Assembly (NCBI GenBank): GCA_040388055.1
Contig: JAZKCO010000001.1
Location: 160,711 to 224,710 of the forward strand
Length of the DNA: 64,000 nt
Direction of reading: 5' to 3'
Source of the DNA: Bacteroidota bacterium
GTDB taxonomy: Bacteria; Bacteroidota; Bacteroidia; Sphingobacteriales; Sphingobacteriaceae
Under the pieces are notes generated by a model. That model was given only the letters and a program-made list of their open reading frames with translations. It searched no databases and was not told where the DNA came from. Below are positions 1 through 49,003 of this stretch, one piece after another (positions within the stretch are counted from its first letter, which is position 1; each line of letters starts with the position of its first letter). The position numbers and the translations under genes were made by a program.

Positions 1-950
1 AGAACCTAACCTGGGAGAATTCTAAACAGCTGGATATTGGTATGAATGCTTCATTTTTTAACAGCAGAATAAATGTTGGATTTGATTATTATAAAAAGAG
101 AACAGAGAATTTGCTTTTTAGTATCGATATCCCCTCTACTTCAGGTTATGGAAGCGGTAAAGTCTTATTCAATACTGGGTCTTTATATAACAGAGGAATC
201 GAAGCCGACCTGTCTGCCGCCATTTTTACCAAAGAATTTAAATGGAATGTTATTGCCAATTTTTCAAAAAATAAATCCATTTTAACTTCCCTTGGCGAAT
301 CACCTGGAACAACAACCTTATTTGTTGGCCGTACCCCTGGTGCGAAACTTGGACAAACCTATTTAGGTATTTTCCATAATCAGCAAGAAATTACAGATTA
401 TGGTATTCAGCCGAGTGCAAAGCCTGGCGACATGAAGTTTGCAGATATAAATGGTGATGGAAAATTTACCGGCGCGGATCAGCTTCCAATTGGTTCACCC
501 ATACCAAAATATATTTTTGGCCTTACCAATACCTTTAATTACAAAAGATTTGAATTAACACTTTTTGTAGAATCTTCTGTTGGCCGCAATGGCGATGATA
601 TTGATTTATTAAATGATCCGGTAGACCTTACCAGTAACAAATACCGGAAGTTTATAAACATTTGGACACCTGGGAATACCGAAAACGCAACAGTACCTGG
701 GCCTGGAGTTAGTAATTATTCTTATTCTACATTTGATCTGGTTAACCGTAGTTATTATAAATTGCGTAACGCAAGATTAAGTTACTCGTTTTCTCCAAAG
801 CTGACAAAATTTGCAAGATCGGCATCACTCTATCTTTCTGGCCAAAATTTAATTACTATATCCAAGTATCCGGGATTTGATCCCGAAACGGGTAGCGTTG
901 GTTATCCTACTACAAGAACATTTGTACTAGGAGTAAATGTTGGATTTTAA
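1..950 (+). CDS. susC: SusC/RagA TonB-dependent outer-membrane receptor, C-terminal part (5' end outside window)
   Basis: Frame is open from nt 3 (NLTWENSKQLDIG, SusC 'LxWE' motif). It also has KFADINGDGK and YPGFDPE and ends in YPTTRTFVLGVNVGF with a terminal Phe. A SusD follows. The ORF-track start at 42 is an internal Met. Confidence 0.93.
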   Translation, partial: NLTWENSKQLDIGMNASFFNSRINVGFDYYKKRTENLLFSIDIPSTSGYGSGKVLFNTGSLYNRGIEADLSAAIFTKEFKWNVIANFSKNKSILTSLGESPGTTTLFVGRTPGAKLGQTYLGIFHNQQEITDYGIQPSAKPGDMKFADINGDGKFTGADQLPIGSPIPKYIFGLTNTFNYKRFELTLFVESSVGRNGDDIDLLNDPVDLTSNKYRKFINIWTPGNTENATVPGPGVSNYSYSTFDLVNRSYYKLRNARLSYSFSPKLTKFARSASLYLSGQNLITISKYPGFDPETGSVGYPTTRTFVLGVNVGF

Positions 951-967: not shown

Positions 968-2452
968 ATGAAAAAAATAACTTGTTTCTCTCTGCTTATG
1001 TTGTGCATGACTTGTTTTTCGTGCAAAAAAATTATAGAAGAAAAACCCTACAGTTTTTTGTCGCCCGAAAATTATTTCGAAAATGGTAACGATGCTTATT
1101 CGGCACTGATAGGTGCCTATAGTGGCTTAGGCGAAAACTCGTATTATTCGAGATTTATGTTCTTAATTCCAACACTGGTTTCAGATGAAAGTGCTAACAT
1201 AACCGGCGATGCAGCATCAAAGCAACAGGATGGCCTTAGTTATTCTTCTACATTAAGCTCATTTCTTACGCTCTGGCGTGCTATTTATGTAGATATTATG
1301 CGAACTAATGTTGTAATTGCCAGATTGCCTGATATTAAAATGGACGAGAAATTAAAACAGCAATACATTGCGGAAGCTAAATTTCTTAGGGCTTTAAACT
1401 ATTTTAACCTGGTTAGATTTTGGGGTGAAGTTCCATTGATGAAAAATGAAATCTTCAAAATGGAAGAGGTATATGTAGAAAAATCGCCCATCAATAATAT
1501 TTATAATTTCATAATCCAGGACCTGAAGGATGCAGCAATGGAATTGCCAAATAAAAACCTAAATGGAAGAGCCGGAAAAGGTTCTGCGCTCGCCCTGCTG
1601 GCTAAAGTTTATTTAACACGGGCATCTTCTACTGTAGCAGAACAAAGCGATTACCAGGATTGCGCATCATTGTGTAAGCAAGTAATTGCACTGCCTGAAT
1701 TTCATTTGATGGCTGATTTTCAAAAAGTCGTAGGTGCTGAGAATGAATTCAGTGCCGAATCTTTGTTCGAATGGAATGCCGACAGAGAAACAGGTGGTGG
1801 TTTTAGTAGTGTCGGGCAATTTGCACTACCAAGTGGGGTATTTGGGTTAGTTCCCGAAAATGCAACTGGCGAGAGTTATTTTGGTGCCGAAAGAACCTTT
1901 TATAATTCTTTTAATGCCAAAGATTATAGAAAAGAATCTACCTTTATTAATAGTGTAACGGATGCTAACGGAAATGTAATCAAATATACCAGCTGGCAAT
2001 TTCCATACCCAAGTCCGGCACCTAAATTCATTAATAAAACCTCTACAACCCGCTCGGGGTATGCTTTTAGCGCAAACTTTATTGTGCTTCGCTTGGCAGA
2101 TGTGTATTTAATGCGTGCCGAGGCACTGAACGAAATTGGCGGACCGGCAACTGAAGATGCTTATGACCTTATTAATGCGATTAGGGCCAGGGCGAGAAAT
2201 CGTAATGGAAATCCGGTCGCTACTTTCCCCGCAAATCTTTCGGGGCTAAATAAAGATACTTTTCGTGATGCGGTGCTCGACGAAAGAAAGGTAGAATTGG
2301 CGTATGAAGGGCATAGGTGGTTCGATTTGATAAGAACAAAACGATTAGTCGGTACAATTTCGAGCGCTAAAACAAAGCATTACTTATTTCCAATACCCAA
2401 TACCGAAATTCTTTTATCCAAAGGGAAACTTACTCAAAATGCCGATTGGTAA
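968..2452 (+). CDS. susD: SusD/RagB nutrient-binding lipoprotein
   Basis: Lipoprotein signal ending FSC-KK; SusD motifs AEAKFLRALNYFNLVRFWG, LRLADVYLMRAEA and ERKVELAYEGHRWFDLIR. Confidence 0.95.
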   Translation: MKKITCFSLLMLCMTCFSCKKIIEEKPYSFLSPENYFENGNDAYSALIGAYSGLGENSYYSRFMFLIPTLVSDESANITGDAASKQQDGLSYSSTLSSFLTLWRAIYVDIMRTNVVIARLPDIKMDEKLKQQYIAEAKFLRALNYFNLVRFWGEVPLMKNEIFKMEEVYVEKSPINNIYNFIIQDLKDAAMELPNKNLNGRAGKGSALALLAKVYLTRASSTVAEQSDYQDCASLCKQVIALPEFHLMADFQKVVGAENEFSAESLFEWNADRETGGGFSSVGQFALPSGVFGLVPENATGESYFGAERTFYNSFNAKDYRKESTFINSVTDANGNVIKYTSWQFPYPSPAPKFINKTSTTRSGYAFSANFIVLRLADVYLMRAEALNEIGGPATEDAYDLINAIRARARNRNGNPVATFPANLSGLNKDTFRDAVLDERKVELAYEGHRWFDLIRTKRLVGTISSAKTKHYLFPIPNTEILLSKGKLTQNADW

Positions 2453-2473: not shown

Positions 2474-3571
2474 ATGAGGAGACTATTGATTTATTGTTTA
2501 TTTGTTCTAGTATTAAACAGCCATATTGTTTATGCTCAAGTTCTTTTTGAAGAGAACACGGTATGGGCATTAGAGGCTGATGCTGGAATAGCTGAACACT
2601 TTGTTTACGGATTGGAGGTAGGCAATAACGGTGTAATTTTGGCCTTTTCGGAAGGACGTATCCGTGCTAACGATACCAGCCCGCATCATATTGTATTAAA
2701 ACGAAGCCTCGACAAAGGAAAGACCTGGCTGCCTTCTCAAATATTGGCCCAGAGTAACAATAACGAATGTTATGCTAACCCAACGCCGGTGAAAGATCCG
2801 GCCACCGGAAATATCACGCTTTTCTATGCACTAAATCTTAATAACGAACGTACAAAAGTCTTTTTCATCATAAGTAAAGATGAAGGATTAACCTGGAGTA
2901 AACCTCTTGAAATTACAGCACTTTTTAATTCAGATCCTCTCCTCAGACCATTTCATCTTCCTGGGCCAGGGCATGGAATTGCATTAAAGAATGGCCGATT
3001 AATCGTACAGGTATGGCATCGATTTTCTGTTAAATTACCTTTAGAGGAAAGAAGGTATGGCGTTTCTGTAATCTATAGCGACGATCAGGGGAAATCCTGG
3101 AAAGCCGGAGGGTATATGCCTTATAATAATTTATATCCGGCAAACGAATCGAGAATAGTAGAAACCAGCGATGGAAAAATAATATTAAATGGTCGCTATG
3201 CTACAGGAAAAGGGAACCAGTATCGTATTCTGACTTATAGTAACGATAATGGCTTAAACTGGTCGGAAGGAACTTATAGTTCATTCAGTACATTTACGCC
3301 TGTAGATGCCGGACTGAATAAGCTTACTATTGGCAGAAAGACTTACCAACTTTTTAGTTATCCTGCCGGACCTGGTAGAAACAACCTCATGATAAGTATA
3401 AGTGAAGATGAGGGGAAGACATGGCTAAAAAGCAAACTCATTGCCAAAGGACCTGTAAATTACTCAGATATAGCCATCCTTCCTGATCAGACAATTCTCG
3501 TTTTATATGGGAAAGGTAACCCTAAATATGTAGTAAATGCCAGATTTAATTTGGAATGGATTCTGAAATAA
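2474..3571 (+). CDS. GH33/BNR-repeat sialidase-fold protein lacking the RIP arginine
   Basis: Signal peptide; Asp boxes SLDKGKTW, SKDEGLTW, SDDQGKSW, SNDNGLNW, SEDEGKTW; PGPG, NE, NGR, GRNNL and NYSD motifs present; HFVYG where (Y/F)RIP is expected. Confidence 0.85.
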   Translation: MRRLLIYCLFVLVLNSHIVYAQVLFEENTVWALEADAGIAEHFVYGLEVGNNGVILAFSEGRIRANDTSPHHIVLKRSLDKGKTWLPSQILAQSNNNECYANPTPVKDPATGNITLFYALNLNNERTKVFFIISKDEGLTWSKPLEITALFNSDPLLRPFHLPGPGHGIALKNGRLIVQVWHRFSVKLPLEERRYGVSVIYSDDQGKSWKAGGYMPYNNLYPANESRIVETSDGKIILNGRYATGKGNQYRILTYSNDNGLNWSEGTYSSFSTFTPVDAGLNKLTIGRKTYQLFSYPAGPGRNNLMISISEDEGKTWLKSKLIAKGPVNYSDIAILPDQTILVLYGKGNPKYVVNARFNLEWILK

Positions 3572-3588: not shown

Positions 3589-6171
3589 ATGTTGAGATAT
3601 TTCGTAACCTGTTTTTTTGCATGCTTGTTTTTCAATATGGCTGCTGTAAATGCCCAAAGCGATGCGAATTGGTTCGTTTGGAAAGTACAAAAGAAATTGC
3701 CGGCTAAAAATGGATTGAGCGGAACAATTACCGGTATAAGTAATGGGGCACTTATTGTAGCTGGGGGAAATAATTTTGATAAACGCATCCAGGAAGGAGG
3801 AAAGAAACACATTTATAATGATATATATGTTTGCATAGATCCGGCCGCAGACAGTTTAGTTTGGATCAATGCCGGGAAATTGCCTTATCCCGTGGTCGAT
3901 GCTGCTACTGTATCCTTTAATAATCGATTATTGGTAATTGGTGGCTCGAATGGCAAAAAACCATACCGAAATGTGATCAGTTTAACCTGGAATAGAGACA
4001 CAAAAAAAGTTGATATTAATACAAACTATCCCAAGCTTCCTCAGGCACGTTCGGGGCTCTCTGCGATCATAACAAAAGAAAATAAGCTATATATTGCCGG
4101 AGGGAAATCTGCTGAAGATGCTCCGGGGAATAATTTTTGGTCATCAACATTAAATGCTAGCGGCGAAAAATTATCGACTTGGCAACAACTGCCAGATCTT
4201 CCCGGCGAAGGACGTTTTGGTGCGGCCTTGATCGCTCAGAATGATGGAGAATTTAATAGTATTTATCTTGCTGGTGGAAAATCGACCTCCACTTATTTAA
4301 CTGATGCCTATAAATTTACACCACATTACGGCGAGGTTAGTGTATGGACAAAAATAAAAGACTTGCCAAGACCAGCATTTTTTGCATCAGCAATGGCATA
4401 CGGTCAAAGTCATGCGCTTTTGTTTGGGGGTTCTGTTGGCCCTAGTGCTGAAGCTGCAATTGCTTTGGGAGACAAATATAAAATGGCCGACGATATTCTC
4501 GCTTACCATACCATTACCGATACCTGGATTACTGCCGGCTATTTGCCGCACGGCATTGCTGGTGCAACGGTTATCCAGGATAACGATAGAATAGAACTTA
4601 TAGGTGGTGAATTAAGACCCGGAGTAAAATCTGATTTGATAATGTCTGGCAAACCAGTTATTGCCATTCAGAAGAGCAAGTTTGGGATAATTGACTATGC
4701 TACGGTAATTATATACCTTATTATTCTTGCAGGAATTAGCTTCTATTTTTCAAGAAATAAAAACACCACAGATGATTATTTACGTGGCGGTCAGCGCATT
4801 CCTTATTGGGCAGCAGGGATTAGTGTAATGGCAACACAGGTTAGTGCAATTGGATTTATGAGTATTCCGGCAAAATCGTATGCTACAAACTGGAGCTATT
4901 TTGCGGGAGTTTGGACCTGGTTTCTTGTTGTGCCTATTGTAACCTGGGCATTTATTCCTTTCTTTCGAAAGCTCGACGTTACCAGTGCTTACGAATATTT
5001 AGAAAGGCGTTTTGATAAATGGACCCGTTTATTTTCTGGGGTAATCTACTGTTTATATCAGCTTGGCAGAATGGGTTTGGTTATTTATCTGCCTGCTGTG
5101 GCATTATCTGCTGTTTCACCAATCGACACCTTTACCTGTATATTAATTATGGGTGTTTTAAGCACACTGTACACTATTGTTGGTGGAATTGAAGCGGTAA
5201 TATGGATTGAAGTTATACAAGCAGGGCTACTCATGGGCGGTGCTATTATCTGTGTAATACTTGCAGTAATCGGTATCGATGGGGGGGTGTCAGAATTTGT
5301 AGATGTAGCGGTAACCCATAATAAATTTAGCTTTGGATCTCTGAATCTCGATTTTACTTCTTCAGCATTAGGAGTTATCCTTATCGGCAACATATTTAAC
5401 AGGTTTGGTAATTTAATTTCAGACCAGGCTATCGTACAACGTTACATGACCACTAAAAATGTAAAAGAAGCAAAAAAATCGCTATGGATTGACGTGGCTG
5501 TATCTGTACCCTGGGCCATTGTTATTTATTTACTTGGAACAGCGCTATATGTTTTTTATAAATCTAATCCTCAAATGCTCAATCCTGTAACTCCTACAGA
5601 TGGGATTTTACCACAATTTATTGCACAAAGAGCACCATCTGGATTAAGCGGGCTTATTATTGCTGCAATTTTTGCGGCATCGATGTCGACAGTTGAAAGC
5701 CATATTCACAGTCTCGCAACCATATTTACCACCGATTTTTACGCAAGATTTGCAAAATCAGTTACCGAAAAAAAGAAGCTAAATTTTGCCAGATGGACTA
5801 CAGGTATTTTAGGCCTGGTAGCTACATTGTTAGCTTTATTACTGCTTACGGTTGATATTAAATCTATTCTCGATGTATTTACAGAGCTTACAGGTTTATT
5901 TATCGGCGCTGCTGGCGGTTTGTTCCTTTTAGGCATTTTTACCGAAAAGACAAATAGCACTGGTGCGTTAATAGGCGCTGTTGCAAGTTGTCTCCTCCTT
6001 TACTTTATCCAGACACAAACACATATTAATTTTTGGCTCTACAGCGCGGTAGGTTTTGCCAGTTGCTTTATTGTCGGCTATTTAAGCAGTTTCATGCTGA
6101 AAGGACGCCGGCAACTGCAGGGGCTTACCATTTATACATTAAACGAAAAGATATTTAATAAAGAAAAATAG
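3589..6171 (+). CDS. Fusion of a Kelch-repeat NanM-like mutarotase (about aa 25-360) and a sodium:solute symporter (SiaT-like, about aa 365-860)
   Basis: Signal peptide, then Kelch repeats (LIVAGG, LLVIGG, LYIAGG, IYLAGG, GGELRPG). SSS motifs follow: DYLRGG, FMSIPAKSY, SAYEYLERRF, YTIVGGIEAVIW, DQAIVQRY, GLIIAAIFAASMST. One continuous frame. Confidence 0.9.
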   Translation: MLRYFVTCFFACLFFNMAAVNAQSDANWFVWKVQKKLPAKNGLSGTITGISNGALIVAGGNNFDKRIQEGGKKHIYNDIYVCIDPAADSLVWINAGKLPYPVVDAATVSFNNRLLVIGGSNGKKPYRNVISLTWNRDTKKVDINTNYPKLPQARSGLSAIITKENKLYIAGGKSAEDAPGNNFWSSTLNASGEKLSTWQQLPDLPGEGRFGAALIAQNDGEFNSIYLAGGKSTSTYLTDAYKFTPHYGEVSVWTKIKDLPRPAFFASAMAYGQSHALLFGGSVGPSAEAAIALGDKYKMADDILAYHTITDTWITAGYLPHGIAGATVIQDNDRIELIGGELRPGVKSDLIMSGKPVIAIQKSKFGIIDYATVIIYLIILAGISFYFSRNKNTTDDYLRGGQRIPYWAAGISVMATQVSAIGFMSIPAKSYATNWSYFAGVWTWFLVVPIVTWAFIPFFRKLDVTSAYEYLERRFDKWTRLFSGVIYCLYQLGRMGLVIYLPAVALSAVSPIDTFTCILIMGVLSTLYTIVGGIEAVIWIEVIQAGLLMGGAIICVILAVIGIDGGVSEFVDVAVTHNKFSFGSLNLDFTSSALGVILIGNIFNRFGNLISDQAIVQRYMTTKNVKEAKKSLWIDVAVSVPWAIVIYLLGTALYVFYKSNPQMLNPVTPTDGILPQFIAQRAPSGLSGLIIAAIFAASMSTVESHIHSLATIFTTDFYARFAKSVTEKKKLNFARWTTGILGLVATLLALLLLTVDIKSILDVFTELTGLFIGAAGGLFLLGIFTEKTNSTGALIGAVASCLLLYFIQTQTHINFWLYSAVGFASCFIVGYLSSFMLKGRRQLQGLTIYTLNEKIFNKEK

Positions 6172-6177: not shown

Positions 6178-7107
6178 ATGAATAAAGTTATTGCATTAGA
6201 TAGCGGCTTAAGTAAGTTCCGGCCCCTGGATAAAATTATCTGTTATGATGATTTTGATAAAGGAATGAACGGGTGGCTGGACCTGCATCCAAATTATGTA
6301 GGTAAGGATTTTAATACGCTTCGCTATAGCCATGTAGATAAAACACAATGGGGACCAATTATGCTCAGTTCGGCAAGTTTCAGGCTTGTGGGCACGCATG
6401 GTTCTATGGATGGGACCTATTCGCTAAAACTTGCTACCAGGCCTGCAGCAAATTCATATACCGAAGCACCTGCCCCAGGCAGCCTCTCGCATGGAATTAA
6501 AAGGCTTACTACCCATTTACCTAAAGGACAACGACAATTTGAAATGTGGTATGCTTATACACCCGAACAAGACAGGCAGGGTTTAAGCGAACAGGCTATG
6601 CGGGCATTTGGATGTTTTTTTGACATTCAGGATGATGATTACAGGTATTTTATTGGAGCTCGTTACTTAAATGCCGTAAACGGCGAAATGGTTAGAAAAT
6701 GGCAGATTTTTCAAGCAAAAGATACCAGCGATTTAGAATGGGCCTATGGTATTGAAGACGATTGGTGTAAGCATGGAATTGATGCAATGTGGTATGGCGA
6801 ACGTTATAATGACGGTTCGACCGACGGTTTCGCCTGGATCCCAGATGGTTATCAGGATCTTTGTTACAATGAAAGCGATGATAAAATTAATTGGGGATAC
6901 CTGCGGTTGCTGATAGATACAGAAAAAAGAGAATATGTAGAACTTCAATCAGGAAGTAAAACCTTCGATTTAAGAGGGATAAAACCTACCCTTACGGCCC
7001 CTTATGCCAGAATTAAAGGCTTATTTAACCCTAGTATCTGGGTCGAAAATGACACCGACAGGCGTGTGTTTTTGTTTGTTGATTCAATTGTAATTTCAGG
7101 AGAATGA
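6178..7107 (+). CDS. Uncharacterised cytoplasmic protein, DUF6772-like
   Basis: 309-aa ORF inside the operon, no signal peptide. Motifs YDDFDxGxNGW, GTHGSMDGTYSLKLATRP and RVFLFVDSIVIS resemble the DUF6772 family as I recall it (not searched). Confidence 0.7.
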   Translation: MNKVIALDSGLSKFRPLDKIICYDDFDKGMNGWLDLHPNYVGKDFNTLRYSHVDKTQWGPIMLSSASFRLVGTHGSMDGTYSLKLATRPAANSYTEAPAPGSLSHGIKRLTTHLPKGQRQFEMWYAYTPEQDRQGLSEQAMRAFGCFFDIQDDDYRYFIGARYLNAVNGEMVRKWQIFQAKDTSDLEWAYGIEDDWCKHGIDAMWYGERYNDGSTDGFAWIPDGYQDLCYNESDDKINWGYLRLLIDTEKREYVELQSGSKTFDLRGIKPTLTAPYARIKGLFNPSIWVENDTDRRVFLFVDSIVISGE

Positions 7108-7442
7108 GACATTTTTATGCATCGGCCGTAGAGCGCCGGATTACAAAGAGCGGTATCATCCAATCTTACCCTATGGAAGCTGGTTGGGCTTCGGAAGCTA
7201 TTTTTTTTGTAAATGTTGAGAATATAGTGGGCAAAGGTGCGCGATTAACTGCATCTGTTCAGATTTCTCCTGATGGTATAAATTGGATAGATGAAGGAAC
7301 AATTTTTCCGGTTATCGAAAAGGAAGGACATTATTACGTGAAGGTTAATCATTTTGGAAATTGGCTCAGAATAAATGCACAGATGGAAGGTGGAGCTACG
7401 AATACAATAACACTTTCAGTCCATCTACATTTAAAATCATAG
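7104..7442 (+). CDS. Small uncharacterised beta-rich cytoplasmic protein
   Basis: 112 aa; ATGA overlap (7104-7107) with the upstream gene; motifs EAGWASEAIFF, VQISPDGINWIDEG and HFGNWLR. Confidence 0.8.
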   Translation: MRHFYASAVERRITKSGIIQSYPMEAGWASEAIFFVNVENIVGKGARLTASVQISPDGINWIDEGTIFPVIEKEGHYYVKVNHFGNWLRINAQMEGGATNTITLSVHLHLKS

Positions 7443-7476: not shown

Positions 7477-9435
7477 ATGCGATCATTTAGCAACCAAATT
7501 ATACTCTTCTTTTTCCTGTTAGTTGGCACTCAACTATGTTTTGCACAAAATAAGGCTGAGTTTACCGTTAAGAATAATTGGGTTGAATCCATTTTTGAAA
7601 TCAAAAATACGGATCAACCAGTTGACAAAAATTTATCCAAACAAAAAGACATCGAATTATGGCAATTCTTGAGGAAGAATTTTAATCGTACAAAAGACCT
7701 GCAAGAAATGAGCTGGGAAGAAAGAGATAAAATATGGGATTTTCAGGATGATAGCTTTTCTTTAAAAAAATTAGGTCAAAATTACATGAAGGCCCTCAAT
7801 GTATCGTATAATGAAAGAGGAATAAAACCTGTTGTCTTTCAAAATGAGTTTAAAACTTTAGCTGATGTTTATAAACTGCGGGAAATTTATCTTCAATCCA
7901 GAGCAAAGGAATATGTTATACTTACTCCAAAACCACTTTTATCCCCTAAAATTAACGGGCCTTCTATTTTTGGAGCGCGTCCCGGGCATCCTATTCTATA
8001 TAAAGTCCCCGTTACAGGTCAGCAACCCCTTAAAATTACCATTTCGGGATTACCCGAAGGCTGCAAATTTAATGAGAAGACGGGCATAATTACAGGGGCA
8101 TTGCAAAATGCCGGAACTTATAAGCTTATCATAAACGCAAGTAATATATATGGAAAGGACTTAAAAACATTTATATTAAAGATAGGTAGTGAAATTTCAT
8201 TAACACCCCCGATGGGTTGGAATAGCTGGAATTGTTTTGCGAGCGATGTAACTGCAAAAGATATTCAGGCTGCAGCCGAATCGATGGTTAGCAGTGGCCT
8301 TGCAAACTACGGATGGAGTTATATTAATATCGACGATTGCTGGATGAACAGGCCTGCCGAAGATGATCCGATTTTCAAAATCAATGATATAATTACAGAA
8401 AAATTTGTATCAAAAGAGAATCTAAGAAAACGACTTAGCAGGATCAGGTTTAATGAAAGTAAACTGGTTGGCAATGTAAGAGATAAAAATGGCAACATTT
8501 TGTCGAATATAGATTTTCCCGACATGAAGGGTTTAACTAATAAAATTCACGACCTGGGACTTAAAACAGGTATTTATATTTCGCCGGGGCATGTAACTTG
8601 TCAAAACTATATTGGAAGCTTGTACCACGAAGAGCAAGATGCCAAACAATTTGCCGAATGGGGTTTTGATTACCTTAAATACGATTGGTGTGGTTATAGT
8701 CAAATTGTTTTCGATAATAAACTCGAAACCTTAAAAAAGCCTTATTTAGTAATGAGAGATGCACTTAACAAGGTAGATCGGGATATTATATATAGTATTT
8801 GTCAATATGGTAAAGGAGAGGTATGGGAATGGGGAAAAGAAGTTGGAGGTAATTTGTGGCGAACCACGAGCGATATTCGCGATACTTGGGAGAGCATTAC
8901 AAAGCTTGGGTTTGGCTCGAATGGCAAAGAAGCTTATGCTGGCCCTGGCCATTGGAATGATCCCGATATGCTGGTTGTTGGATACGTAGGCTGGAGTAAA
9001 AATTTGCGGCCGACCTATCTTTCTCCTAACGAACAATATACCCACGTCTCTTTGTGGAGCTTGTTATCAGCTCCCCTTATTATTGGTGCCGATTTGACCA
9101 AATTAGATGATTTTACATTAGGATTATTATCCAATAGCGAGGTTTTGGCTGTCGATCAGGACATGCTTGGGAAGCAAGCCAAAAAAGTACTGGATTCCAA
9201 CAACATCCAGGTGTGGCAAAAAGAATTGGCAGACGGCTCTTTCGCTATAGGGATATTTAATACTGGAGAAGTGCCGGCTGATTATAAACTCGAACTAAAC
9301 GCGATCAATTTAAAAGGAAATTATACGGTACGTGATCTTTGGTTGCAGAAAGATTTAAAAGAAAATGTTTCTCAATTTAGTTCGACCATTAACAGGCATG
9401 GGGTAAAATTATTGAAATTAACTCCGGTATTATGA
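7477..9435 (+). CDS. GH27 alpha-galactosidase-family glycosidase with putative Ig domain and N-terminal extension
   Basis: TPPMGWNSWN, NIDDCW, LKYDWC (nucleophile), WRTTSDI (acid/base), GHWNDPDML; He_PIG-like LPEGCKFNEKTGIITG; signal peptide. Confidence 0.92.
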   Translation: MRSFSNQIILFFFLLVGTQLCFAQNKAEFTVKNNWVESIFEIKNTDQPVDKNLSKQKDIELWQFLRKNFNRTKDLQEMSWEERDKIWDFQDDSFSLKKLGQNYMKALNVSYNERGIKPVVFQNEFKTLADVYKLREIYLQSRAKEYVILTPKPLLSPKINGPSIFGARPGHPILYKVPVTGQQPLKITISGLPEGCKFNEKTGIITGALQNAGTYKLIINASNIYGKDLKTFILKIGSEISLTPPMGWNSWNCFASDVTAKDIQAAAESMVSSGLANYGWSYINIDDCWMNRPAEDDPIFKINDIITEKFVSKENLRKRLSRIRFNESKLVGNVRDKNGNILSNIDFPDMKGLTNKIHDLGLKTGIYISPGHVTCQNYIGSLYHEEQDAKQFAEWGFDYLKYDWCGYSQIVFDNKLETLKKPYLVMRDALNKVDRDIIYSICQYGKGEVWEWGKEVGGNLWRTTSDIRDTWESITKLGFGSNGKEAYAGPGHWNDPDMLVVGYVGWSKNLRPTYLSPNEQYTHVSLWSLLSAPLIIGADLTKLDDFTLGLLSNSEVLAVDQDMLGKQAKKVLDSNNIQVWQKELADGSFAIGIFNTGEVPADYKLELNAINLKGNYTVRDLWLQKDLKENVSQFSSTINRHGVKLLKLTPVL

Positions 9436-11096
9436 GCTTAAAACAGTTATGCCTATTTTTTCTACTTATTGTGGGAAGTAAGGCTTTTGCACAATCAGCC
9501 AGTAAACAAAAAGATACTAGCCTCTTTAATCTTGCCGAAAAAGCAACAGTTTCATCTCCATACGCTCAAAAATTCCCGCAACGAAAGATTACTAATCTAA
9601 TTGATGGAAAGTCAGATAATAACCCTAATAACGGCTGGACCCCAAATATTTCGAACGTAAATAGCAAAAATCCGGTCTTGATTGCTTTAAGTTGGGAAAA
9701 ACCTGTCCGTATTGAACAGATTGATTTGTCGTGGTTAAAGAATTGGTATTTTACTGATTATACATTTGCTACATGGAACGGCCCCGAACCAGTAATTTTA
9801 ACGGCTCCACCAACCCGTTATAAACACACCAATGTTTTTACTTCGGGGCAGGAAGGTTATCATACTTTCCGTATCCCGGCAATGGTTATTTCTCCTAAAG
9901 GAACGATTTTTGCCTTTTGCGAAGGCCGGAAAAACAATAATCGCGATGTTGGTGCTATCGATTTATTGGTTAAACGAAGCACCGACCAGGGGGCAACCTG
10001 GGGGGCAGCTCAGGTAGTTTATGGCGAAAAAAGTGAAGTTACCATCGGGAATCCAGTTCCAATAGCAGATAAAACAGGTAATATTCATGTTGTTTTCTGC
10101 AAAGACAGTAAATCGGTGCTGTATTCGAAAAGTAACGACGATGGTCTCACGTATTCATCTCCAGCAGATATTACTAATGCGATTGATGAGCTTTGTAAAA
10201 ATGCAGGACTTCAATGGGATCAGGTATGGACAGGCCCTGGTCATGGATTAGAAACAAGCAAGGGCCGTTTAATTATCCCGTTAAAAGTTACCAGAAAAGA
10301 AACAGAAGGTATAAAGAGAAGGGTTGGAATTATCTATAGCGATGATGGCGGAAATACCTGGCTTCCAGGCGGGATTGTAACACCATCGATTGGTGAAATG
10401 AGTGAATGTTCGGTATTCGAAAAAGCAGATGGAACTTTATTAATAAATATGCGCTGGCACGATGGACGTTATCGTGCGGTTAGTGAAAGTGCTAACGGTG
10501 GCCTAACCTGGAGTGTTCCAATTGCAGCAAAGCAACTTCCCGACCCTGGTTCGGAAGGAAGTATTATTAGATATTCTTCTGATAAAGATGACCAACGAGT
10601 TTTGTTTTCTAATCTTAATAATCAGGAAGTGGGAACGGTAAACAGAAAAAACCTAACCTTAAGGCTAAGTAAGGATGATGGGAAAACCTGGAATTCGGGT
10701 TTGCAAATTGTTCCGGGTCCGGCTGGATATTCGGATATTGCCATTACCAAAAAAGGTAAAGTTGCAATCCTTTTCGAGAATGGAACCGCAAGTTATTCGG
10801 ATCAACTTACGTTTTGCCTGATTGATCCCAATGAGCTTGAACTACCTAAAAAAGGAGCATTAACAAAAGAAAGCTATGAGGTAAATGTTGCCCGGTCGTT
10901 TATACAAAATAAGAACTGGAATCTTATTGAAAAGATTTCAAATAATGAGGCTAAGCCTAAAATATACACCCTAAAAAAACCTATCGTAACTAATACGCTG
11001 TTTATTTCTGTTTCGGGAACACACCAGCCCGATGGCCTTGCCTACTTTCAGGAAATCAGAGTTCTTGGCCACGAAAATAATGATGAAAAGAAATAA
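9432..11096 (+). CDS. GH33 sialidase flanked by two halves of an F5/8-type (discoidin/CBM32-like) domain
   Basis: FRIP, EGR, Asp boxes (STDQGATW, SNDDGLTY, SDDGGNTW, SKDDGKTW), SE, NMR, RKNL and GYSD all present; ATGA overlap with the GH27 gene. Confidence 0.9.
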   Translation: MSLKQLCLFFLLIVGSKAFAQSASKQKDTSLFNLAEKATVSSPYAQKFPQRKITNLIDGKSDNNPNNGWTPNISNVNSKNPVLIALSWEKPVRIEQIDLSWLKNWYFTDYTFATWNGPEPVILTAPPTRYKHTNVFTSGQEGYHTFRIPAMVISPKGTIFAFCEGRKNNNRDVGAIDLLVKRSTDQGATWGAAQVVYGEKSEVTIGNPVPIADKTGNIHVVFCKDSKSVLYSKSNDDGLTYSSPADITNAIDELCKNAGLQWDQVWTGPGHGLETSKGRLIIPLKVTRKETEGIKRRVGIIYSDDGGNTWLPGGIVTPSIGEMSECSVFEKADGTLLINMRWHDGRYRAVSESANGGLTWSVPIAAKQLPDPGSEGSIIRYSSDKDDQRVLFSNLNNQEVGTVNRKNLTLRLSKDDGKTWNSGLQIVPGPAGYSDIAITKKGKVAILFENGTASYSDQLTFCLIDPNELELPKKGALTKESYEVNVARSFIQNKNWNLIEKISNNEAKPKIYTLKKPIVTNTLFISVSGTHQPDGLAYFQEIRVLGHENNDEKK

Positions 11097-11146: not shown

Positions 11147-12085
11147 ATGATGAAAATAGAAGGCCTCATTACTGCGACTTTTTGCCCATTTAATCCAGAT
11201 GGATCCCTAAATATCTCTCTAATACCGATAATTGTAGAAAAAGCAATAGCAGATGGCTTAACCGGCGTGTTTGTTTGTGGTACAAATGGAGAAGGCCCCA
11301 ATCTCACTATTGAAGAAAGAATGTCGATTGCTGAAGAGTATGTTAAAGTAGTCGACAATAGAATTTTAGTTATCGTACACGTTGGTCATAACTCGATAGC
11401 CGAGTCGAGGAAGCTGGCCAAACATGCAGTTGCTATTGGGGCTGATGCCATTTCTTCGGTCGCCTCCTTTTATTTTAAATTAAGTTCTGTTTACAATTTA
11501 GTGGAAAGCATAGCAGCAATAGCTGCTGCAGCACCAGACCTTCCATTTTATTATTATCATATCCCAGCACTTACTGGTGTGGCCATGGATATGGTCGAAT
11601 TTTTAAAACTAGGCGAAGAGTTAATCCCGAATTTAGCTGGAATAAAATATACTGCCTCTACACTTCATGAGTATCAGGCCTGCCTAAATTATAAGAATGG
11701 AAAGTTTGATATCTTATTTGGGTATGATGAGATGCTGCTAAGCGCATTATCGGTTGGCGCAAAGGGTGCAGTAGGGAGTACTTATAATTTTGCTGCTGGG
11801 TTATACCTGCAAATCATGAACCTTTATCGCCAAGATGAGAAAGAAGCTGCAAGAAAACTTCAACTTACTGCAGTAGAAATGGTTCGGTGTTTGGTACAGT
11901 TCCCTTCTCTTCCGGCCCAAAGGGCTATTATGAAAATGATTGGACTTGACCTAGGCACCTGCCGGCTGCCCTTGAAAGAACTTTCAGAAAAGGAATCTAA
12001 CCTATTAAAAGCTGGTTTGGAGGCTATTGATTTTTTTGCGATCGTAGAAAATTGCCGCGGGCCGGTAAAGAAAGTCTTGTTTTAA
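11147..12085 (+). CDS. DHDPS/N-acetylneuraminate lyase-family aldolase
   Basis: GTNGE, YYYHIP (catalytic Tyr), GIKYT (Schiff-base Lys), FGYDE sugar-binding motif, GAVGSTYN. Confidence 0.9.
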   Translation: MMKIEGLITATFCPFNPDGSLNISLIPIIVEKAIADGLTGVFVCGTNGEGPNLTIEERMSIAEEYVKVVDNRILVIVHVGHNSIAESRKLAKHAVAIGADAISSVASFYFKLSSVYNLVESIAAIAAAAPDLPFYYYHIPALTGVAMDMVEFLKLGEELIPNLAGIKYTASTLHEYQACLNYKNGKFDILFGYDEMLLSALSVGAKGAVGSTYNFAAGLYLQIMNLYRQDEKEAARKLQLTAVEMVRCLVQFPSLPAQRAIMKMIGLDLGTCRLPLKELSEKESNLLKAGLEAIDFFAIVENCRGPVKKVLF

Positions 12086-28186: not shown

Positions 28187-28891
28187 TCAACTGTCTGCAA
28201 ACAACCGGCTAAAATGATTTTCTAAGTGATTACGCATCGCATTCCGGAAAAGCTCGGGCGAACCATTTTCCAGGATATCGACCAGGCCTTTATGTGAAAC
28301 GAATTTATGAATCTGTCCTTGCTTTTTTAAAAGGCCACTGTTGTGTACAAAATCGAAAATGGGCAAAAGCATGCCTTGGAACTTGCGCAACGTTTCATTT
28401 CCGGTAATATCATATAGTTTACCATGAAAGCCAATCTCGTGCTCGATATTAAATAAATAGTCCTGAGAAGACTCGGGCTCATTGTCTACTATTTCTTTGA
28501 GCATCTTAATATCTTCGGGTGTTACGCGTTGAAACAGTAAGTCGGCCATCCCAATTTCCAGTACTAATCTAATTTCGAAAATCTCTTTAAGGGTATCCTG
28601 GTCGAGGATATGAGGATTCATGCTCTTGTTTAAAATGCTGAAGATGTCTGGGCTTGTAATAACTGCCCCCTTTTTCTTTTTCGATTCGATGAGCCCCATT
28701 AGCCTTAACCGAAGCAATGCTTCTCTAACTACAGTTCGGCTCACGCCCAATATACTACTTAATTCGAGCTCGGTTGGGATGCTATCTCCAACTTTTAGCT
28801 TGCGTTCCTGAAGTAGTTGTACAAGATTGTCCTCAACCCGGTCGACTAACGAACTGGTATCTACTTGTTTAAAATTGGCAATGTCGTCCAT
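28187..28891 (-). CDS. GntR/FadR-family regulator, divergent from the sialic-acid PUL
   Basis: wHTH GDSIPTELEL...GVSRTVVREAL, FCD-type EIRLVLEIG and FH motif; ATG at 28891 (track start 28933). Confidence 0.92.
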   Translation of the reverse strand: MDDIANFKQVDTSSLVDRVEDNLVQLLQERKLKVGDSIPTELELSSILGVSRTVVREALLRLRLMGLIESKKKKGAVITSPDIFSILNKSMNPHILDQDTLKEIFEIRLVLEIGMADLLFQRVTPEDIKMLKEIVDNEPESSQDYLFNIEHEIGFHGKLYDITGNETLRKFQGMLLPIFDFVHNSGLLKKQGQIHKFVSHKGLVDILENGSPELFRNAMRNHLENHFSRLFADS

Positions 28892-29030
28892 TATTAGGTA
28901 TAATTTATTTGTGGCAAAAAAAAGTGCCCTCAAAGCGTTGGCGCAAATATAATACTTATGATATCAAATTTGTCTAAAATAAAATTTCAGAATTATTTGC
29001 AAATAAATAAAATAATTAAGTACTTAGTGG

Positions 29031-29049
29031 TATTATGTCTGACATAATA
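29031..29049. promoter_or_regulatory. Perfect palindrome TATTATGTC-T-GACATAATA, candidate GntR operator
   Basis: 9-1-9 inverted repeat ending 20 nt upstream of the susC ATG; the GTC-N-GAC core fits GntR/FadR-type operators. Confidence 0.75.
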
Positions 29050-29069
29050 ATCAAATTAAACCCTAAAGT

Positions 29070-32000
29070 ATGAAAAAATTTTACCAAACAAATGTTAGTA
29101 AACTGTTGCTAACAGTAGCTATGAGCTTCATCATGCTTATCGCTAATGCCCAAAGCAAAAATGTTACTGGGCGTGTAACCGACTCGTCGGGAGGTGGCGT
29201 GCCAAGTACAGGCATCATCATTAAAGGAACTAAAGTATCCGCTATCACAGATGCTTCAGGAAAGTATGTAATTCCGGCAAAAAGCGGAGATATCTTAGTT
29301 TTCTCTTTTATTGGTTACATTACACAAGAGGTTACTGTGGGTAACCAGCAAACGATTAATGTACTATTAAAAGAAGACAATACTGCGCTCGACGAAGTTG
29401 TTGTTTTAGGTTATGGTTCGATTAAGAAGTCGAAACTTACAGGCTCAGTATCCAAGCTGGATCCTAAGGTTTTAGAAACAGGTATACGATCTAATCCTGC
29501 ATCGGCCTTAGCCGGAACAATACCTGGGGTAAGAGTACAACAGACTTCTGGTCGCCCCGGCTCGGTACCCAATATTGTTTTGCGTGGGGGTACCAGTTAT
29601 GGCGGCGGTGGTTCACCATTGGTTGTGGTCGACGGTTTATTAAGATCGGGTTTTAGCGATATTAACCAGGACGACATAGAATCTATAGAAGTATTAAAAG
29701 ATGCATCGGCAACGGCTATTTATGGTGCCCGAGCAAGTAATGGAGTAGTTTTAATTACGACTAAAAGAGGTAAAGCTGGGGTATCTAATATCTCTCTTAA
29801 ATCGAAAGTAGGAATCAATAAATTAAATATCCCTTTCGAATTTTTTGGTGCGGAAGAATATCTTTACTGGTCTAGAAAGGCTATCGAAACTTCTGGGTTA
29901 TATGATGCCAGCCGCTTAAGTCAGTTAAATACTACAGGTCCATTTGGTACTGGAAACTTATATAAAGATACCAATGGTGTGCCTTACGATGGAAATGTAA
30001 ATGCCAGTGCCGTATGGAGTCCAATGTTTAGAAATTCGACTAATGAAGAATTGCTAACAAAAGGATGGAAATCTATGCTCGATCCAGTTAAAACCAATGC
30101 AGCTGGTGCTTACGATCCTAATGGAACTAATAAAGAAATTATCTATAAAAGTTTTAACTACCAGGATTATGCCCTTAGGCCCTATAGCTTAACTCAGGAT
30201 TATAACCTCAATGTAACTGGCGGGAATGAAAATGGCAAATATTATGCTGGTTTAGGTAGCTATGAAGAGAAAGGAATGCCAATTAATACCTTTTACAAGC
30301 GTTTAACCTTTGTTTTAAATGGCGATTACAAAGTAAAACCTTGGCTAACCTCTTCTTCGAGCTTAAACTTCGCTAATGCCAAGTGGCGGGATGCCGTTAC
30401 AAACAGTGAAGGAAATTACTTAACCCGTTCTTTGGGTGCGCCACCAACCATGCGCGGTACAAACGAAAAGGGAGATTTATTGGTAGGTAGAGATCTTGCA
30501 GATGGTAATCCAGCGGTAAATGATGATAAATTTCTGCGCGACAATAGTACCGATAAATTTACTTTGTCTCAGGCGTTTGTAATAGATTTCCTTAAAAATC
30601 TGAACTTAAAAGTAAGTGGTAACCTATTCTACGACGAAGGTTATTACGAGTCGTTTAATAAAGATTATTTATCGAGCCCTAATAATATTAATAGAACCCG
30701 TAGTTCAAGTGCTTCATCAGATAAAGACTTAAGTCAGACTTATAATGCGGTTTTAAATTATAATACTAATATCGCTTCAAAACACAGCATCAATGTAATG
30801 GTCGCTTCCGAATATTACGATATTTATCAAAAGGGGCTTTCGGCATCGGGTTCTGGTGCACCAACAGACGATTTTATGGATCTCCAATACACAAGTTCTG
30901 ATAAGGACAGAAGAAGCATTGACACCTATCACCAACGTCAACGTATTCTGTCGTTCTTTGGTCGTGCTACCTACGATTACGATGAAAAATACTTATTAAC
31001 AGCTACTTTCAGACGCGATGGTTATTCGAGATTGTTAAATAACCGCTGGGGTAATTTCCCAGGTATTTCGATAGGTTGGAATATTCATAACGAAGACTTC
31101 TTTAAACCATTTACTAATGTAGTTAATACCTTAAAATTAAGAGCTAGTTATGGTGCAAATGGTAACGTAGGGGGTGTAGGTGCCTATACTTTACAAGGTA
31201 ACTATAGTTCAAATAAATATAATGGCAGCATCGGCTATTTAGCGGGCAACCCTTATACACCTAACTTATTATGGGAAAGTTTAATTACAAAAGAAGTTGG
31301 CTTAGATGCCCGCTTGTTTAATAAATTGGATGTCTCATTAGCCTATTATTACAGAACAACAAGCGATAAAATTGCCTCCCTAACATTTCCTGTAACTGCA
31401 GGTATTTCTTCAATAAGTACTAACAATGGTAATATGCAGAATAAAGGGGTAGAGATAGATTTGAATTATAATGCTTTCAGAAATAAAGATTGGGCGGTAA
31501 ACATTAACTACAATATGGCCTATAATGCTAATAAAGTATTAAAATTACCATCTAATGGCCTTCTTAATAACAGACAAGGTGGCTTCCAGGTTTACGATCC
31601 GAACACAAAAGAACTGATTTGGGTAGGCGGAATACAGGAAGGACAAGATCCAAATGTGGCTTATGCTTACCAAGCTGATGGAATTATTAGAAATAAGGCC
31701 GACTTAGATTCTTATGCATTACAGTTAAGAGATTTATTGGGTGCTAAAACTTTAGTGCATCCCGATGTATATAATGCATTGCCAGCTTCGCAAAAAAACT
31801 TGTATTATCCAATCGCCCTTGGTGATGTGAAATGGAAAGATGTGAATGGAGATGGTATTATTAATAGTTTTGATAGAGTTTACCAAGGACGCACAATACC
31901 ACGTTTTACAGGTGGTTTTGGCGCCAATGTGAAATGGAAAGATTTCTCTTTAAGTACTCGTCTAGATTATGCACTTGGGTTTGTACAATATGATGGTGCA

Positions 32001-32390
32001 ACTGCCTGGTTTGTAAGTAATGCACAAGGAACATTTAATACCACTACTGCAATTCGCGATACCTGGTCGCCAACTAACCCAAATGCCAAATATCCAACCT
32101 ATTATTGGGCAGATCAATTATACAAAAATAATACCTTCCGCGAGTCGAGTATGTTTTATCAAAAAGGAGATTATCTGGCATTAAGAGAGGTTAATTTAAC
32201 CTATTCTTTGCCTGCTAAAATTGCCAGCAGACTAAAAAGCCAGGGGGTAAATTTATCGGTAAGCGGTCAGAACCTTACTTATTTCAGCAAATCTACTTTA
32301 TACTCTCCAGAGAGCGGAAGTACTCCAATAGGTGCTGGTGGTTATCCATTACCACGTACGATCATTTTTGGAGCTCAATTTATATTTTAA
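29070..32390 (+). CDS. susC: SusC/RagA TonB-dependent receptor, NanO-like
   Basis: Full-length SusC: EVVVLGYG, IESIEVLKDASATAIYGARASNGVVLITTKRG, terminal PRTIIFGAQFIF; paired with a NanU-like SusD in a nan cluster. Confidence 0.95.
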   Translation: MKKFYQTNVSKLLLTVAMSFIMLIANAQSKNVTGRVTDSSGGGVPSTGIIIKGTKVSAITDASGKYVIPAKSGDILVFSFIGYITQEVTVGNQQTINVLLKEDNTALDEVVVLGYGSIKKSKLTGSVSKLDPKVLETGIRSNPASALAGTIPGVRVQQTSGRPGSVPNIVLRGGTSYGGGGSPLVVVDGLLRSGFSDINQDDIESIEVLKDASATAIYGARASNGVVLITTKRGKAGVSNISLKSKVGINKLNIPFEFFGAEEYLYWSRKAIETSGLYDASRLSQLNTTGPFGTGNLYKDTNGVPYDGNVNASAVWSPMFRNSTNEELLTKGWKSMLDPVKTNAAGAYDPNGTNKEIIYKSFNYQDYALRPYSLTQDYNLNVTGGNENGKYYAGLGSYEEKGMPINTFYKRLTFVLNGDYKVKPWLTSSSSLNFANAKWRDAVTNSEGNYLTRSLGAPPTMRGTNEKGDLLVGRDLADGNPAVNDDKFLRDNSTDKFTLSQAFVIDFLKNLNLKVSGNLFYDEGYYESFNKDYLSSPNNINRTRSSSASSDKDLSQTYNAVLNYNTNIASKHSINVMVASEYYDIYQKGLSASGSGAPTDDFMDLQYTSSDKDRRSIDTYHQRQRILSFFGRATYDYDEKYLLTATFRRDGYSRLLNNRWGNFPGISIGWNIHNEDFFKPFTNVVNTLKLRASYGANGNVGGVGAYTLQGNYSSNKYNGSIGYLAGNPYTPNLLWESLITKEVGLDARLFNKLDVSLAYYYRTTSDKIASLTFPVTAGISSISTNNGNMQNKGVEIDLNYNAFRNKDWAVNINYNMAYNANKVLKLPSNGLLNNRQGGFQVYDPNTKELIWVGGIQEGQDPNVAYAYQADGIIRNKADLDSYALQLRDLLGAKTLVHPDVYNALPASQKNLYYPIALGDVKWKDVNGDGIINSFDRVYQGRTIPRFTGGFGANVKWKDFSLSTRLDYALGFVQYDGATAWFVSNAQGTFNTTTAIRDTWSPTNPNAKYPTYYWADQLYKNNTFRESSMFYQKGDYLALREVNLTYSLPAKIASRLKSQGVNLSVSGQNLTYFSKSTLYSPESGSTPIGAGGYPLPRTIIFGAQFIF

Positions 32391-32400
32391 GAAGACAGAC

Positions 32401-33975: not shown

Positions 33976-33986
33976 TACCTTACTTA

Positions 33987-34030
33987 AAAAAGAGTGAGCA
34001 GTAGCATTTTACTGCTTGCTCTTTTATTTT
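33987..34030 (+). terminator. Intra-operon stem-loop / intrinsic terminator after susCD
   Basis: AAAAGAGTGAGCAGTA-gcattt-TACTGCTTGCTCTTTT with two G:U pairs, followed by a T-rich run. Confidence 0.7.
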
Positions 34031-34051
34031 TCTTATTATAAATTAGCGAAA

Positions 34052-34981: not shown

Positions 34982-35000
34982 GTTATTTATTAAAATTAGA

Positions 35001-36176: not shown

Positions 36177-36180
36177 GCTA

Positions 36181-37422: not shown

Positions 37423-37437
37423 AACGATAACGCACGC

Positions 37438-39033: not shown

Positions 39034-39045
39034 GGTTTTAAAGAA

Positions 39046-43198: not shown

Positions 43199-43204
43199 GA
43201 CCAC

Positions 43205-48975: not shown

Positions 48976-49003
48976 AATTAATAAACATCATTATCAAAAA
49001 TAA

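Follow-up and report, generated by a model that had tools for sequence, protein, structure and literature searches.

A sialic-acid utilisation locus built around an uncharacterised two-gene component in a Sphingobacteriaceae bacterium

To our knowledge, bacterial sialic-acid catabolism is regarded as fully mapped, its components being a sialidase, a transporter, NanM and NanQ, a lyase, an epimerase and a kinase. The canonical nan locus of Bacteroidota (NanLET-type) provides a regulator, SusCD/NanOU, a sialidase of glycoside hydrolase family 33 (GH33), a mutarotase, an importer and a lyase, and all of these roles are repeated in an operon that we analysed in a Sphingobacteriaceae bacterium (GenBank assembly GCA_040388055.1). 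The operon lies at one end of a window of 64,000 nucleotides (contig JAZKCO010000001.1, positions 160,711 to 224,710, forward strand), whose numbering is used below, and it is built around an uncharacterised two-gene component: an adjacent gene pair encoding a DUF6772 protein (P0001) and a small DUF6385-like protein (P0002). The pair is a conserved and highly constrained two-protein component that fits none of the mapped sialic-acid roles and is found in eight phyla, including gut Alistipes. Probably, it represents an undescribed two-subunit cytoplasmic enzyme of sugar-acid metabolism.

A gene pair conserved across eight phyla

P0001 (309 aa) is encoded at 6178..7107 and P0002 (112 aa) at 7104..7442, both on the + strand. 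The stop codon of the former and the start codon of the latter share ATGA at 7104-7107, and P0001 starts 6 nt after the stop codon of the upstream symporter gene. Both the overlapping reading frames and their position directly after the symporter had been described in an earlier note on this DNA, and both descriptions are exact. At 7093-7107, where DUF6772 ends in a conserved Ser-Gly-Glu, the DNA reads TCAGGAGAATGA, which puts an AGGAG-like stretch directly 5' of the partner ATG. The two proteins are predicted to be cytoplasmic. No membrane segment was found in either sequence, neither has a hydrophobic N-terminus, and the maximal Kyte-Doolittle value of a 12-residue segment is 0.63 for P0001 and 0.88 for P0002, in contrast to 2.2-2.7 for the SusD, GH33a, NanM-SSS, GH27 and GH33b products of the operon, which have clear signal peptides. 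The earlier statement that the pair, unlike the neighbouring hydrolases, lacks signal peptides is thus borne out. The composition of P0001 had been described as rich in Trp, Tyr, Asp and His; Asp (9.7%), Tyr (5.8%) and Trp (3.2%) are indeed enriched, whereas His (1.9%) is not.

The likeness of the large protein to DUF6772, proposed in the earlier note, was recovered over the full length by an HMM search: P0001 matches PF20562 at E 7.4e-101, scoring 337.6 bits where the cut-off is 27 and covering positions 3-283 of the 284 in the profile. No other Pfam family matches P0001 at E <= 10. By comparison, P0002 is a borderline member of DUF6385 (PF19912), scoring 27.1 bits where the cut-off is 26.8 and covering only positions 18-74 of the 82 in the profile, and most of its homologues fall below the DUF6385 threshold or have no precomputed PF19912 match. 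NCBIfam contains no model matching either protein. P0001 and P0002 are real genes; homologues number in the hundreds (among the matches listed, 50-89% identity for the large protein and 41-72% for the small one). DUF6772 is present in a single copy in the source genome.

A scan of representative genomes yielded 80 loci with a DUF6772 protein 51-88% identical to P0001, 78 of which could be evaluated, the other two ending at a contig edge. A P0002 homologue is located directly downstream of the DUF6772 gene in 75 of the 78; two of the three loci without a partner beside the main DUF6772 copy carry further copies with partners. In these 75 loci the genes overlap in 6 cases and are separated by 0-20 nt in 42 and by 21-60 nt in 18, most gaps being 0-30 nt. 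Tight spacing is therefore conserved, whereas the ATGA overlap itself is a local detail. The loci belong to Bacteroidota, Planctomycetota, Verrucomicrobiota, Chloroflexota, Spirochaetota, Acidobacteriota, Deinococcota and Ca. Sysuimicrobiota. The earlier note had associated DUF6772 with sugar-uptake clusters outside Bacteroidota, but this phylum accounts for 52 of the 78 loci in the DUF6772 tree.

A second DUF6772 subfamily (~38% identity; 1265 proteins at E <= 1e-10), found in Caldilineae and others, is accompanied by the partner in all 7 sampled loci (E 1e-32 to 1e-39), often with the partner upstream of DUF6772 and one or two genes between them. Because the linkage outlasts such rearrangement, the two proteins are more likely to form a functional unit than to be neighbours by translational accident. 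Consistently across lineages, both genes are found in one operon, and this obligate linkage is compatible with a heteromer. No natural fusion of DUF6772 with its partner was found among 280 representative clusters; long matches considered as candidate fusions were rejected as frameshift or low-complexity artefacts. Alignment of the P0001 and P0002 families with hhalign (probability 2.5%) showed the two proteins not to be homologous to each other. As to arrangement in the second subfamily, in the Caldilineae loci L094, L097 and L100 the partner is upstream, directly after a Gfo/Idh/MocA gene, and unrelated genes (PMSR, GSDH-like and cytochrome c) are located between it and DUF6772; in L094 and L100 Ldh_2 then follows, with an HpcH aldolase gene nearby.

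The DUF6772 family is small, comprising the same 280 representative clusters at E <= 1e-3 among 1.8 billion. Its members in all 80 loci are at least 51% identical to P0001, and the tree largely follows the phyla (9 label changes versus a minimum of 7), implying that the high identity across phyla reflects strong constraint more than recent transfer. Within Bacteroidota, Chitinophagaceae and Sphingobacteriaceae are interleaved, and Parapedobacter is represented by two distinct clades.

The host operon and a canonical sialic-acid locus nearby

The full unit comprises ten genes, coding for a GntR/FCD regulator, SusC, SusD, GH33a, NanM-SSS, DUF6772, the DUF6385-like protein, GH27, GH33b and a lyase; those in the window are on the + strand. 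The regulator gene directly precedes that of SusC and lies upstream of the window on the same contig (L102:9711-10394). Positions 1..950 encode the C-terminal part of the SusC/RagA outer-membrane transporter (TIGR04056, E 3.8e-63), the start of which also lies upstream of the window, and are followed by a SusD-family lipoprotein gene (968..2452; PF07980 and PF14322; lipoprotein-type signal peptide) whose product is weakly NanU-like (NF033072, E 1.9e-22, below the cut-off). Next come an exported GH33-fold sialidase homologue, GH33a (2474..3571; BNR_2, E 5.8e-33; PDB 7lbu and 1eur, ~E 2e-23), and a fusion of a periplasmic NanM-like (Kelch) mutarotase with a SiaT-type Na+/sialic-acid symporter of the SSS family (3589..6171; NANM and SSF domains). 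Downstream of the pair are genes for an exported GH27 protein of the alpha-galactosidase type with an Ig-like (He_PIG) N-terminal region (7477..9435; Melibiase_2, E 1.6e-50; signal peptide; PDB alpha-galactosidases 4ogz and 4nzj, E 3.4e-93), a second exported GH33 sialidase homologue, GH33b (9432..11096; BNR_2, E 4.6e-34; PDB sialidases, E 1.8e-29), and a cytoplasmic NanA-like sialic-acid lyase of the dihydrodipicolinate synthase (DHDPS) family (11147..12085; PF00701, E 7.3e-60), whose nearest solved relatives are N-acetylneuraminate lyases (5afd, E 1e-66). From SusC to the end of the lyase gene (12085), neighbouring genes are separated by 6-50 nt or overlap by 4 nt. Two GH33 sialidase homologues, a SiaT-NanM importer/mutarotase and a NanA-like lyase, which together define sialic-acid utilisation, are thus all present. 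The pair is located between the SiaT homologue and the lyase gene. Pair and lyase are the only predicted cytoplasmic enzymes of the operon, all glycosidases being predicted to be exported, and a profile scan of the operon found no epimerase, kinase or isomerase of its own.

A canonical polysaccharide utilisation locus (PUL) for N-acetylneuraminic acid (Neu5Ac) is located 17 kb downstream of this operon (28187..51025). It contains a GntR/FCD regulator, SusCD, a lyase with a GSTGE motif (34016-34981), a stand-alone NanM, an MFS transporter, a GH33 with BNR_assoc_N, a GDSL+SASA sialate O-acetylesterase, a GlcNAc 2-epimerase of the AGE type (41127-42317), EamA, a second BNR_2 protein, GH20 and GH95; a second AGE epimerase is encoded elsewhere in the genome. 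The host operon is accordingly a second, paralogous sialic-acid-type PUL that repeats the roles of the canonical locus, and the presence of canonical and non-canonical PULs side by side provides a clean natural control. The two differ in the lyase motif, in the pocket residues of the SiaT homologue, in the triad arginine of GH33a and in the AGE and esterase genes, which the host operon lacks.

The lyase of the host operon has CGTNGEGPN where its canonical paralogue has CGSTGEG. Orthologues of 57-70% identity are present in six other pair-carrying soil Bacteroidota genomes, five of them with a GTNGE-type motif; a pattern search for this motif in Niabella aurantiaca found none. Pair-linked lyases have Asn residues in loop positions 46-52, which canonical NanA does not have, and those of soil Bacteroidota share a CG(T/S)NGEGPN loop (L005:17045-17974, L029:13779-14672, L103-L106). 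The SSS domain is ~38% identical to SiaT of Proteus mirabilis (5nv9, E 1.9e-106) and keeps the carboxylate-binding Arg135, with Q, G and V at SiaT positions 58, 63 and 82. GH33b keeps the FRIP motif (TFRIP in the alignment), in contrast to GH33a, which has HFVYG where relatives have (F/Y)RIP and has thereby lost the first Arg of the carboxylate-binding triad; this Arg-to-Phe change is kept in orthologues from pair-linked PULs (e.g. L001:6395-7468). GH33c, a second BNR family of pair-linked PULs (~385 aa), is likewise devoid of the (F/Y)RIP motif.

Sphingobacterium has been described as possessing KDNases and an aldolase specific for Kdn (2-keto-3-deoxynononic acid), whose specificity depends on residue 50 (PMC10017367). 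The CG(T/S)NGEGPN loop may be a signature of this Kdn-specific aldolase, although orthology is only a lead. Given the four systematic differences between the two PULs and the reported Kdn aldolase, we take the host operon to be a PUL whose substrate belongs to the sialic-acid family but is not Neu5Ac. The foremost candidate is Kdn or a substituted relative, at not far short of an even chance. The region following the operon (12244-19053) is unrelated and encodes a TonB-dependent receptor, DUF4876, DUF6850 and a di-haem MauG/CCP peroxidase.

Neighbourhoods, fold and possible function of the pair

Neighbouring genes were counted within 10 kb of the pair in the 52 loci with full flanks. An SSS importer is found in 43/52, a GH33-like gene in 25/52, a flavin or 2-oxoglutarate-dependent (2OG) oxidoreductase in 26/52, a GntR/FCD regulator in 22/52, a DHDPS-family gene in 17/52 and sulfatases in 9/52. 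The first two and the DHDPS counts bear out the link to sugar-acid genes on which the earlier note had built; of the findings by which it would have been contradicted, namely homologues unlinked to each other, an absence of sugar-acid genes nearby and a match to a characterised unrelated family, none was made. At least four SSS subtypes are represented, and ABC systems with SBP_bac_1 or SBP_bac_5 are found elsewhere. The oxidoreductases divide into PF12831 (22 loci), GMC with a Gluconate_2-dh3 small subunit (3) and PhyH (3), and MR_MLE is also a recurrent neighbour in the P0001 subfamily. PF12831 was considered as an obligatory partner and rejected, as the source genome has Rossmann-motif matches only; a literature search on PF12831/FAD_oxidored found nothing relevant.

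The composition of the loci varies between lineages. The compact operons of Parapedobacter have the order GntR-GH33-SusCD-pair-SSS-NanM-lyase, in which the pair is the sole unexplained step. Chitinophaga PULs consist of YhcH, two unknown genes, GntR, GH33, SusCD, GH33a, NanM-SSS, the pair and DUF1080, and their GTNGE lyase is unlinked, ~0.4 Mb away. Planctomycete loci combine GntR, the pair, NanM-SSS, PF12831 and GH33; those of Alistipes retain only SSS, PF12831 and the pair, and no NanA-like lyase was found in the genome of Alistipes sp. CAG:435 at E <= 1e-30. In Chloroflexota the pair is accompanied by sulfatases and an ABC importer with SBP_bac_5. Because both GH33 and a NanA-like lyase are missing from the Alistipes and Chloroflexota loci, the sialic-acid link is specific to some lineages. 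The recurrent neighbours of the second subfamily are HpcH/HpaI aldolase, Gfo/Idh/MocA, Ldh_2, SDR and MR_MLE dehydratase, and relatives in other sugar-acid operons have dehydrogenases on one side and dehydratases or aldolases on the other. What the loci have in common is that sugar acids, often of the keto-deoxy type, are taken up and converted; sialic acid as such is not the shared theme.

Several further genes recur beside the pair. The gene immediately after that of the DUF6385-like protein in Chitinophaga encodes a '3-keto-disaccharide hydrolase' of the DUF1080 family (PF06439, E 2e-56; L004:11293-11970; also L001 and L009). In Chitinophaga sp. SYP-B3965 (L101:2521-4355), the stretch just upstream of the PUL GntR gene encodes, in the same orientation, a homologue of YhcH/NanQ (E 1e-46) together with two proteins, 211 and 220 aa long, without a Pfam match. 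In the Sphingobacteriaceae loci L003 (11209-13578), L005 and L006, a gene for a GMC oxidoreductase, presumably periplasmic judging by its enzyme type, lies between the pair and the SSS gene, and in L003 and L006 it is preceded by a Gluconate_2-dh3 small subunit; some lineages may thus oxidise a sugar at this point. In one locus, from a Bacteroidales metagenome-assembled genome (L058, 1-20918), the pair and SSS are surrounded by two MBL-fold genes and by four paralogues of the PF12831 FAD-oxidoreductase. Several protein families without Pfam assignment also co-occur with the pair (L021:4043-5530; L026:13298-14884, 4770-6845 and 15233-16828), among them one of 495 aa encoded upstream of SSS mainly in Cytophagales loci and one of 528 aa common to Chloroflexota and Alistipes loci. 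The hut genes upstream of the pair in Alistipes were treated as lineage-specific synteny.

AlphaFold2 (AF2) was used to model the two proteins as single chains. The P0001 model is all-beta (pLDDT 84, pTM 0.86), with low confidence in the invariant loop 67-75; the pLDDT of the invariant GTHGSMxGxY loop is below 50. Its best PDB folds are those of the alginate lyases Aly36B, vAL-1, AlyC3 and PyAly, of polysaccharide lyase (PL) families PL36, PL14 and PL7, as well as those of calreticulin, of L-type lectins (Emp46/47, ERGIC-53, legume lectins) and of the C-terminal domains of GH43, each of them a concanavalin A (ConA)-like jelly-roll matched at E ~1e-5 and TM 0.35-0.5. P0002 is modelled as an eight-stranded sandwich (pLDDT 89.7) with generic jelly-roll matches only in the PDB. 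Sequence and profile searches of the PDB with P0001, P0002 and the family alignment gave no useful match, and no homology to PL families was found at E <= 10. Residues D24, W33, S64, Y81, K84, K108, R109, E122, D149, R156, Y163, N165, W175, Q226, N231, K236, Y241, R243, D247, D302 and S303 are invariant across both DUF6772 subfamilies, and C229, Y230, E232, N238, W239, N284 and E290 are nearly invariant in the family. The family-wide invariant set includes three Lys, three Arg, three Tyr, Asn/Gln, acidic residues and two Trp, and contains no His; nine Trp are invariant within the P0001 subfamily. The invariant charged residues occupy alternating strand positions, a pattern which looks like an active site. 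Basic residues could bind an anion and Tyr/Lys could transfer protons, and many residues are aromatic. Such a palette is that of metal-independent jelly-roll lyases and of sugar-binding sites. A possible resemblance to the catalytic site of a jelly-roll lyase consists of a significant but loose fold match (E 1e-5, TM 0.35-0.48) and the invariant Lys, Arg, Tyr, Asn and Gln. Among the reactions entertained in the earlier note, lyase-like chemistry alone gains some support, coming from the modelled fold and these invariant residues.

The reading that we favour, tentatively and at less than an even chance, is that DUF6772 and the DUF6385-like protein are the large and small subunits of one cytoplasmic carbohydrate enzyme that carries out enolate-type chemistry before the lyase. 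According to this proposal, the exported GH33 enzymes would release a ulosonic acid of the sialic-acid family, most likely not Neu5Ac, which the NanM-SiaT fusion would anomerise and import. The pair would convert the imported sugar acid, and the NanA-like lyase would then cleave the product. We place the pair on the imported sugar acid, ahead of the lyase, because it occurs with importers more often than with lyases and also where a NanA-like lyase is absent. The chemistry would be cofactor-independent acid/base catalysis (enolate, E1cB-type), as in the jelly-roll polysaccharide lyases, and is proposed on account of the fold, the residue palette and the frequent oxidoreductase and keto-deoxy-acid aldolase neighbours. 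The side chains of Lys, Arg and Asn/Gln in the proposed large, catalytic subunit (DUF6772) may hold the carboxylate while a Tyr/Lys base abstracts the acidic proton beside the carboxylate or keto group. With a substituent or hydroxyl then eliminated or rehydrated, a plain open-chain 2-keto-3-deoxy acid would be left for the lyase. The DUF6385-like protein would be the small subunit.

A number of observations weigh against this proposal. It is synteny that suggests the heteromer. A plain 3-deoxy-ulosonic acid needs the lyase alone, and the substituent or modification that we propose is hypothetical; a SiaT-type carrier with R135 kept, together with NanM, implies a free monosaccharide with an intact carboxylate. 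The structural matches of P0001 are weak (TM 0.35-0.43) and include as many lectins as lyases, the PDB searches described above found no solved relative, and a full-text literature search on DUF6772 found nothing. Moreover, neither the source genome nor the operon was found to contain a genuine PF12831 oxidoreductase, and the Alistipes and Chloroflexota loci described above dispense with both sialidase and lyase.

As the main alternative, though this appears unlikely, the pair might be a ring-opening or anomerase-type isomerase, a non-homologous analogue of NanQ/YhcH or of KdgF/KduI, that speeds the conversion of an imported cyclic sugar acid, or of the lactone formed by a neighbouring dehydrogenase, to the open chain used by a lyase, dehydrogenase or dehydratase. 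This is the sole reaction class that fits every context, be it with importers, before NanA-like or HpcH aldolases, or between SDR and MR_MLE dehydratase. Furthermore, YhcH was not found in the source genome, nor in 8 of the 12 pair-carrying genomes tested, and NanQ has been described as supplying the linear substrate to the aldolase (PMC10017367). By contrast, Chitinophaga sp. SYP-B3965 has YhcH in the same PUL, ~2 kb upstream of the regulator, where the role would be duplicated, and replacement of NanQ by the pair is weakened as an explanation. In addition, a two-subunit protein of ~420 residues that is at least 51% identical across phyla is far more constrained than known mutarotases, and the DUF6772 family lacks an invariant His.

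Very improbable, in our view, is a role after the lyase, in the slot of NanE as the earlier note had it, where the pair would isomerise or epimerise the released aldose (mannose or an unusual six-carbon sugar) to a common hexose. In favour of such a role, the operon itself encodes neither an epimerase nor a kinase or isomerase, and its cytoplasmic enzymes are limited to the pair and the lyase. However, the canonical Neu5Ac PUL has its own AGE and the genome a second one, and the pair is therefore not simply filling the NanE slot. P0001 and P0002 have no match to PF04131 or PF07221 (NanE/AGE). A DHDPS-family gene is nearby in 17 of the 52 loci only, compared with 43 for SSS, the Chitinophaga lyase is distant from the PUL, Alistipes sp. 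CAG:435 has no NanA-like lyase at all, as is also the case in the Chloroflexota loci, and relatives of the pair adjoin aldolases that release quite different aldehydes. Finally, a non-catalytic, lectin-like cytoplasmic sensor, chaperone or accessory of the importer or regulator is the least probable explanation. It is favoured by the best fold matches, which include carbohydrate-binding modules (CBMs), calreticulin and L-type lectins, by the importer that adjoins the pair in most loci and by the frequency of GntR regulators. On the other hand, the importers, of four SSS subtypes or of the ABC type with SBP_bac_1 or SBP_bac_5, are unrelated to one another as classes, which argues against a specific transporter accessory, the invariant charged residues resemble an active site, and FCD-type GntR regulators bind their own ligands directly.

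In the furthest-reaching reading, the pair might be the first of a new family of carbohydrate-active enzymes that work without a cofactor and consist of two subunits, their lyase, hydratase or isomerase activity residing on a lectin-like scaffold. They would add a hitherto unrecognised cytoplasmic step to the breakdown of Kdn-type or substituted ulosonic acids, with sister clades acting on other keto-deoxy sugar acids. We regard this reading as doubtful rather than probable; if true, bacteria of soil, sea and gut would widely possess a second sialic-acid pathway of a non-canonical kind. Identification of the reaction would provide a function for two DUF families, would probably show how bacteria use sialic acids other than Neu5Ac (Kdn, substituted and oxidised forms), and would possibly reveal a new enzyme class on the ConA-like fold.

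Comparison with described proteins and loci

Both DUF6772 and DUF6385 are families without a described function, and DUF6385 is described in the literature as a single jelly-roll only. P0001 is a full-length, high-scoring member of the former, and P0002 is predicted to have the same single jelly-roll as the latter. Typical DUF6385 proteins, however, are the heads of fibre or capsid-like proteins, from which P0002 differs as a stand-alone protein of ~110 aa. The jelly-roll lyases (PL36 Aly36B, PL14 vAL-1 and PL7) have in common with P0001 the ConA-like fold, as modelled, and the Lys/Arg/Tyr/Asn-Gln palette, which by analogy would suit carboxylate binding and beta-elimination. They display no sequence similarity to P0001, and the TM values reach only 0.35-0.43. 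Moreover, these lyases are secreted, single-chain enzymes acting on polymers, whereas the pair is predicted to be cytoplasmic, is encoded by two genes and follows a monosaccharide importer.

NanQ/YhcH, like KdgF in uronate catabolism, is a small cytoplasmic beta-sandwich protein, encoded in sialic-acid operons and placed between uptake and aldolase. It is not homologous to the pair, which has no match to PF04074 (DUF386), and both coexist in the Chitinophaga PUL. The two-subunit C-glycoside deglycosidases CarB/CarC and DgpB/DgpC, as well as DUF1080, carry out non-Koshland cleavage or hydration of sugars downstream of sugar oxidoreductases; in CarBC the large catalytic subunit is accompanied by a small one with a beta-sandwich, and the fold of DUF1080 is ConA-like. 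The pair resembles these systems in that flavin, GMC and Gfo/Idh/MocA oxidoreductases are frequent in its vicinity and in that DUF1080 follows it in Chitinophaga. It differs from them in that no homology was detected and in that the host operon has no oxidoreductase.

Relative to the canonical nan locus of Bacteroidota, the host operon has an SSS-NanM fusion instead of MFS and NanM, a GTNGE lyase and a GH33 without the triad Arg; it contains GH27, has neither an esterase nor an AGE, and adds the DUF6772/DUF6385 pair. Overall, the distinctive points of the window are the SiaT/NanM/NanA context of the pair, the GTNGE signature of its lyase, the Arg-less GH33 and, in the related Chitinophaga PULs, the DUF1080 and YhcH neighbours.

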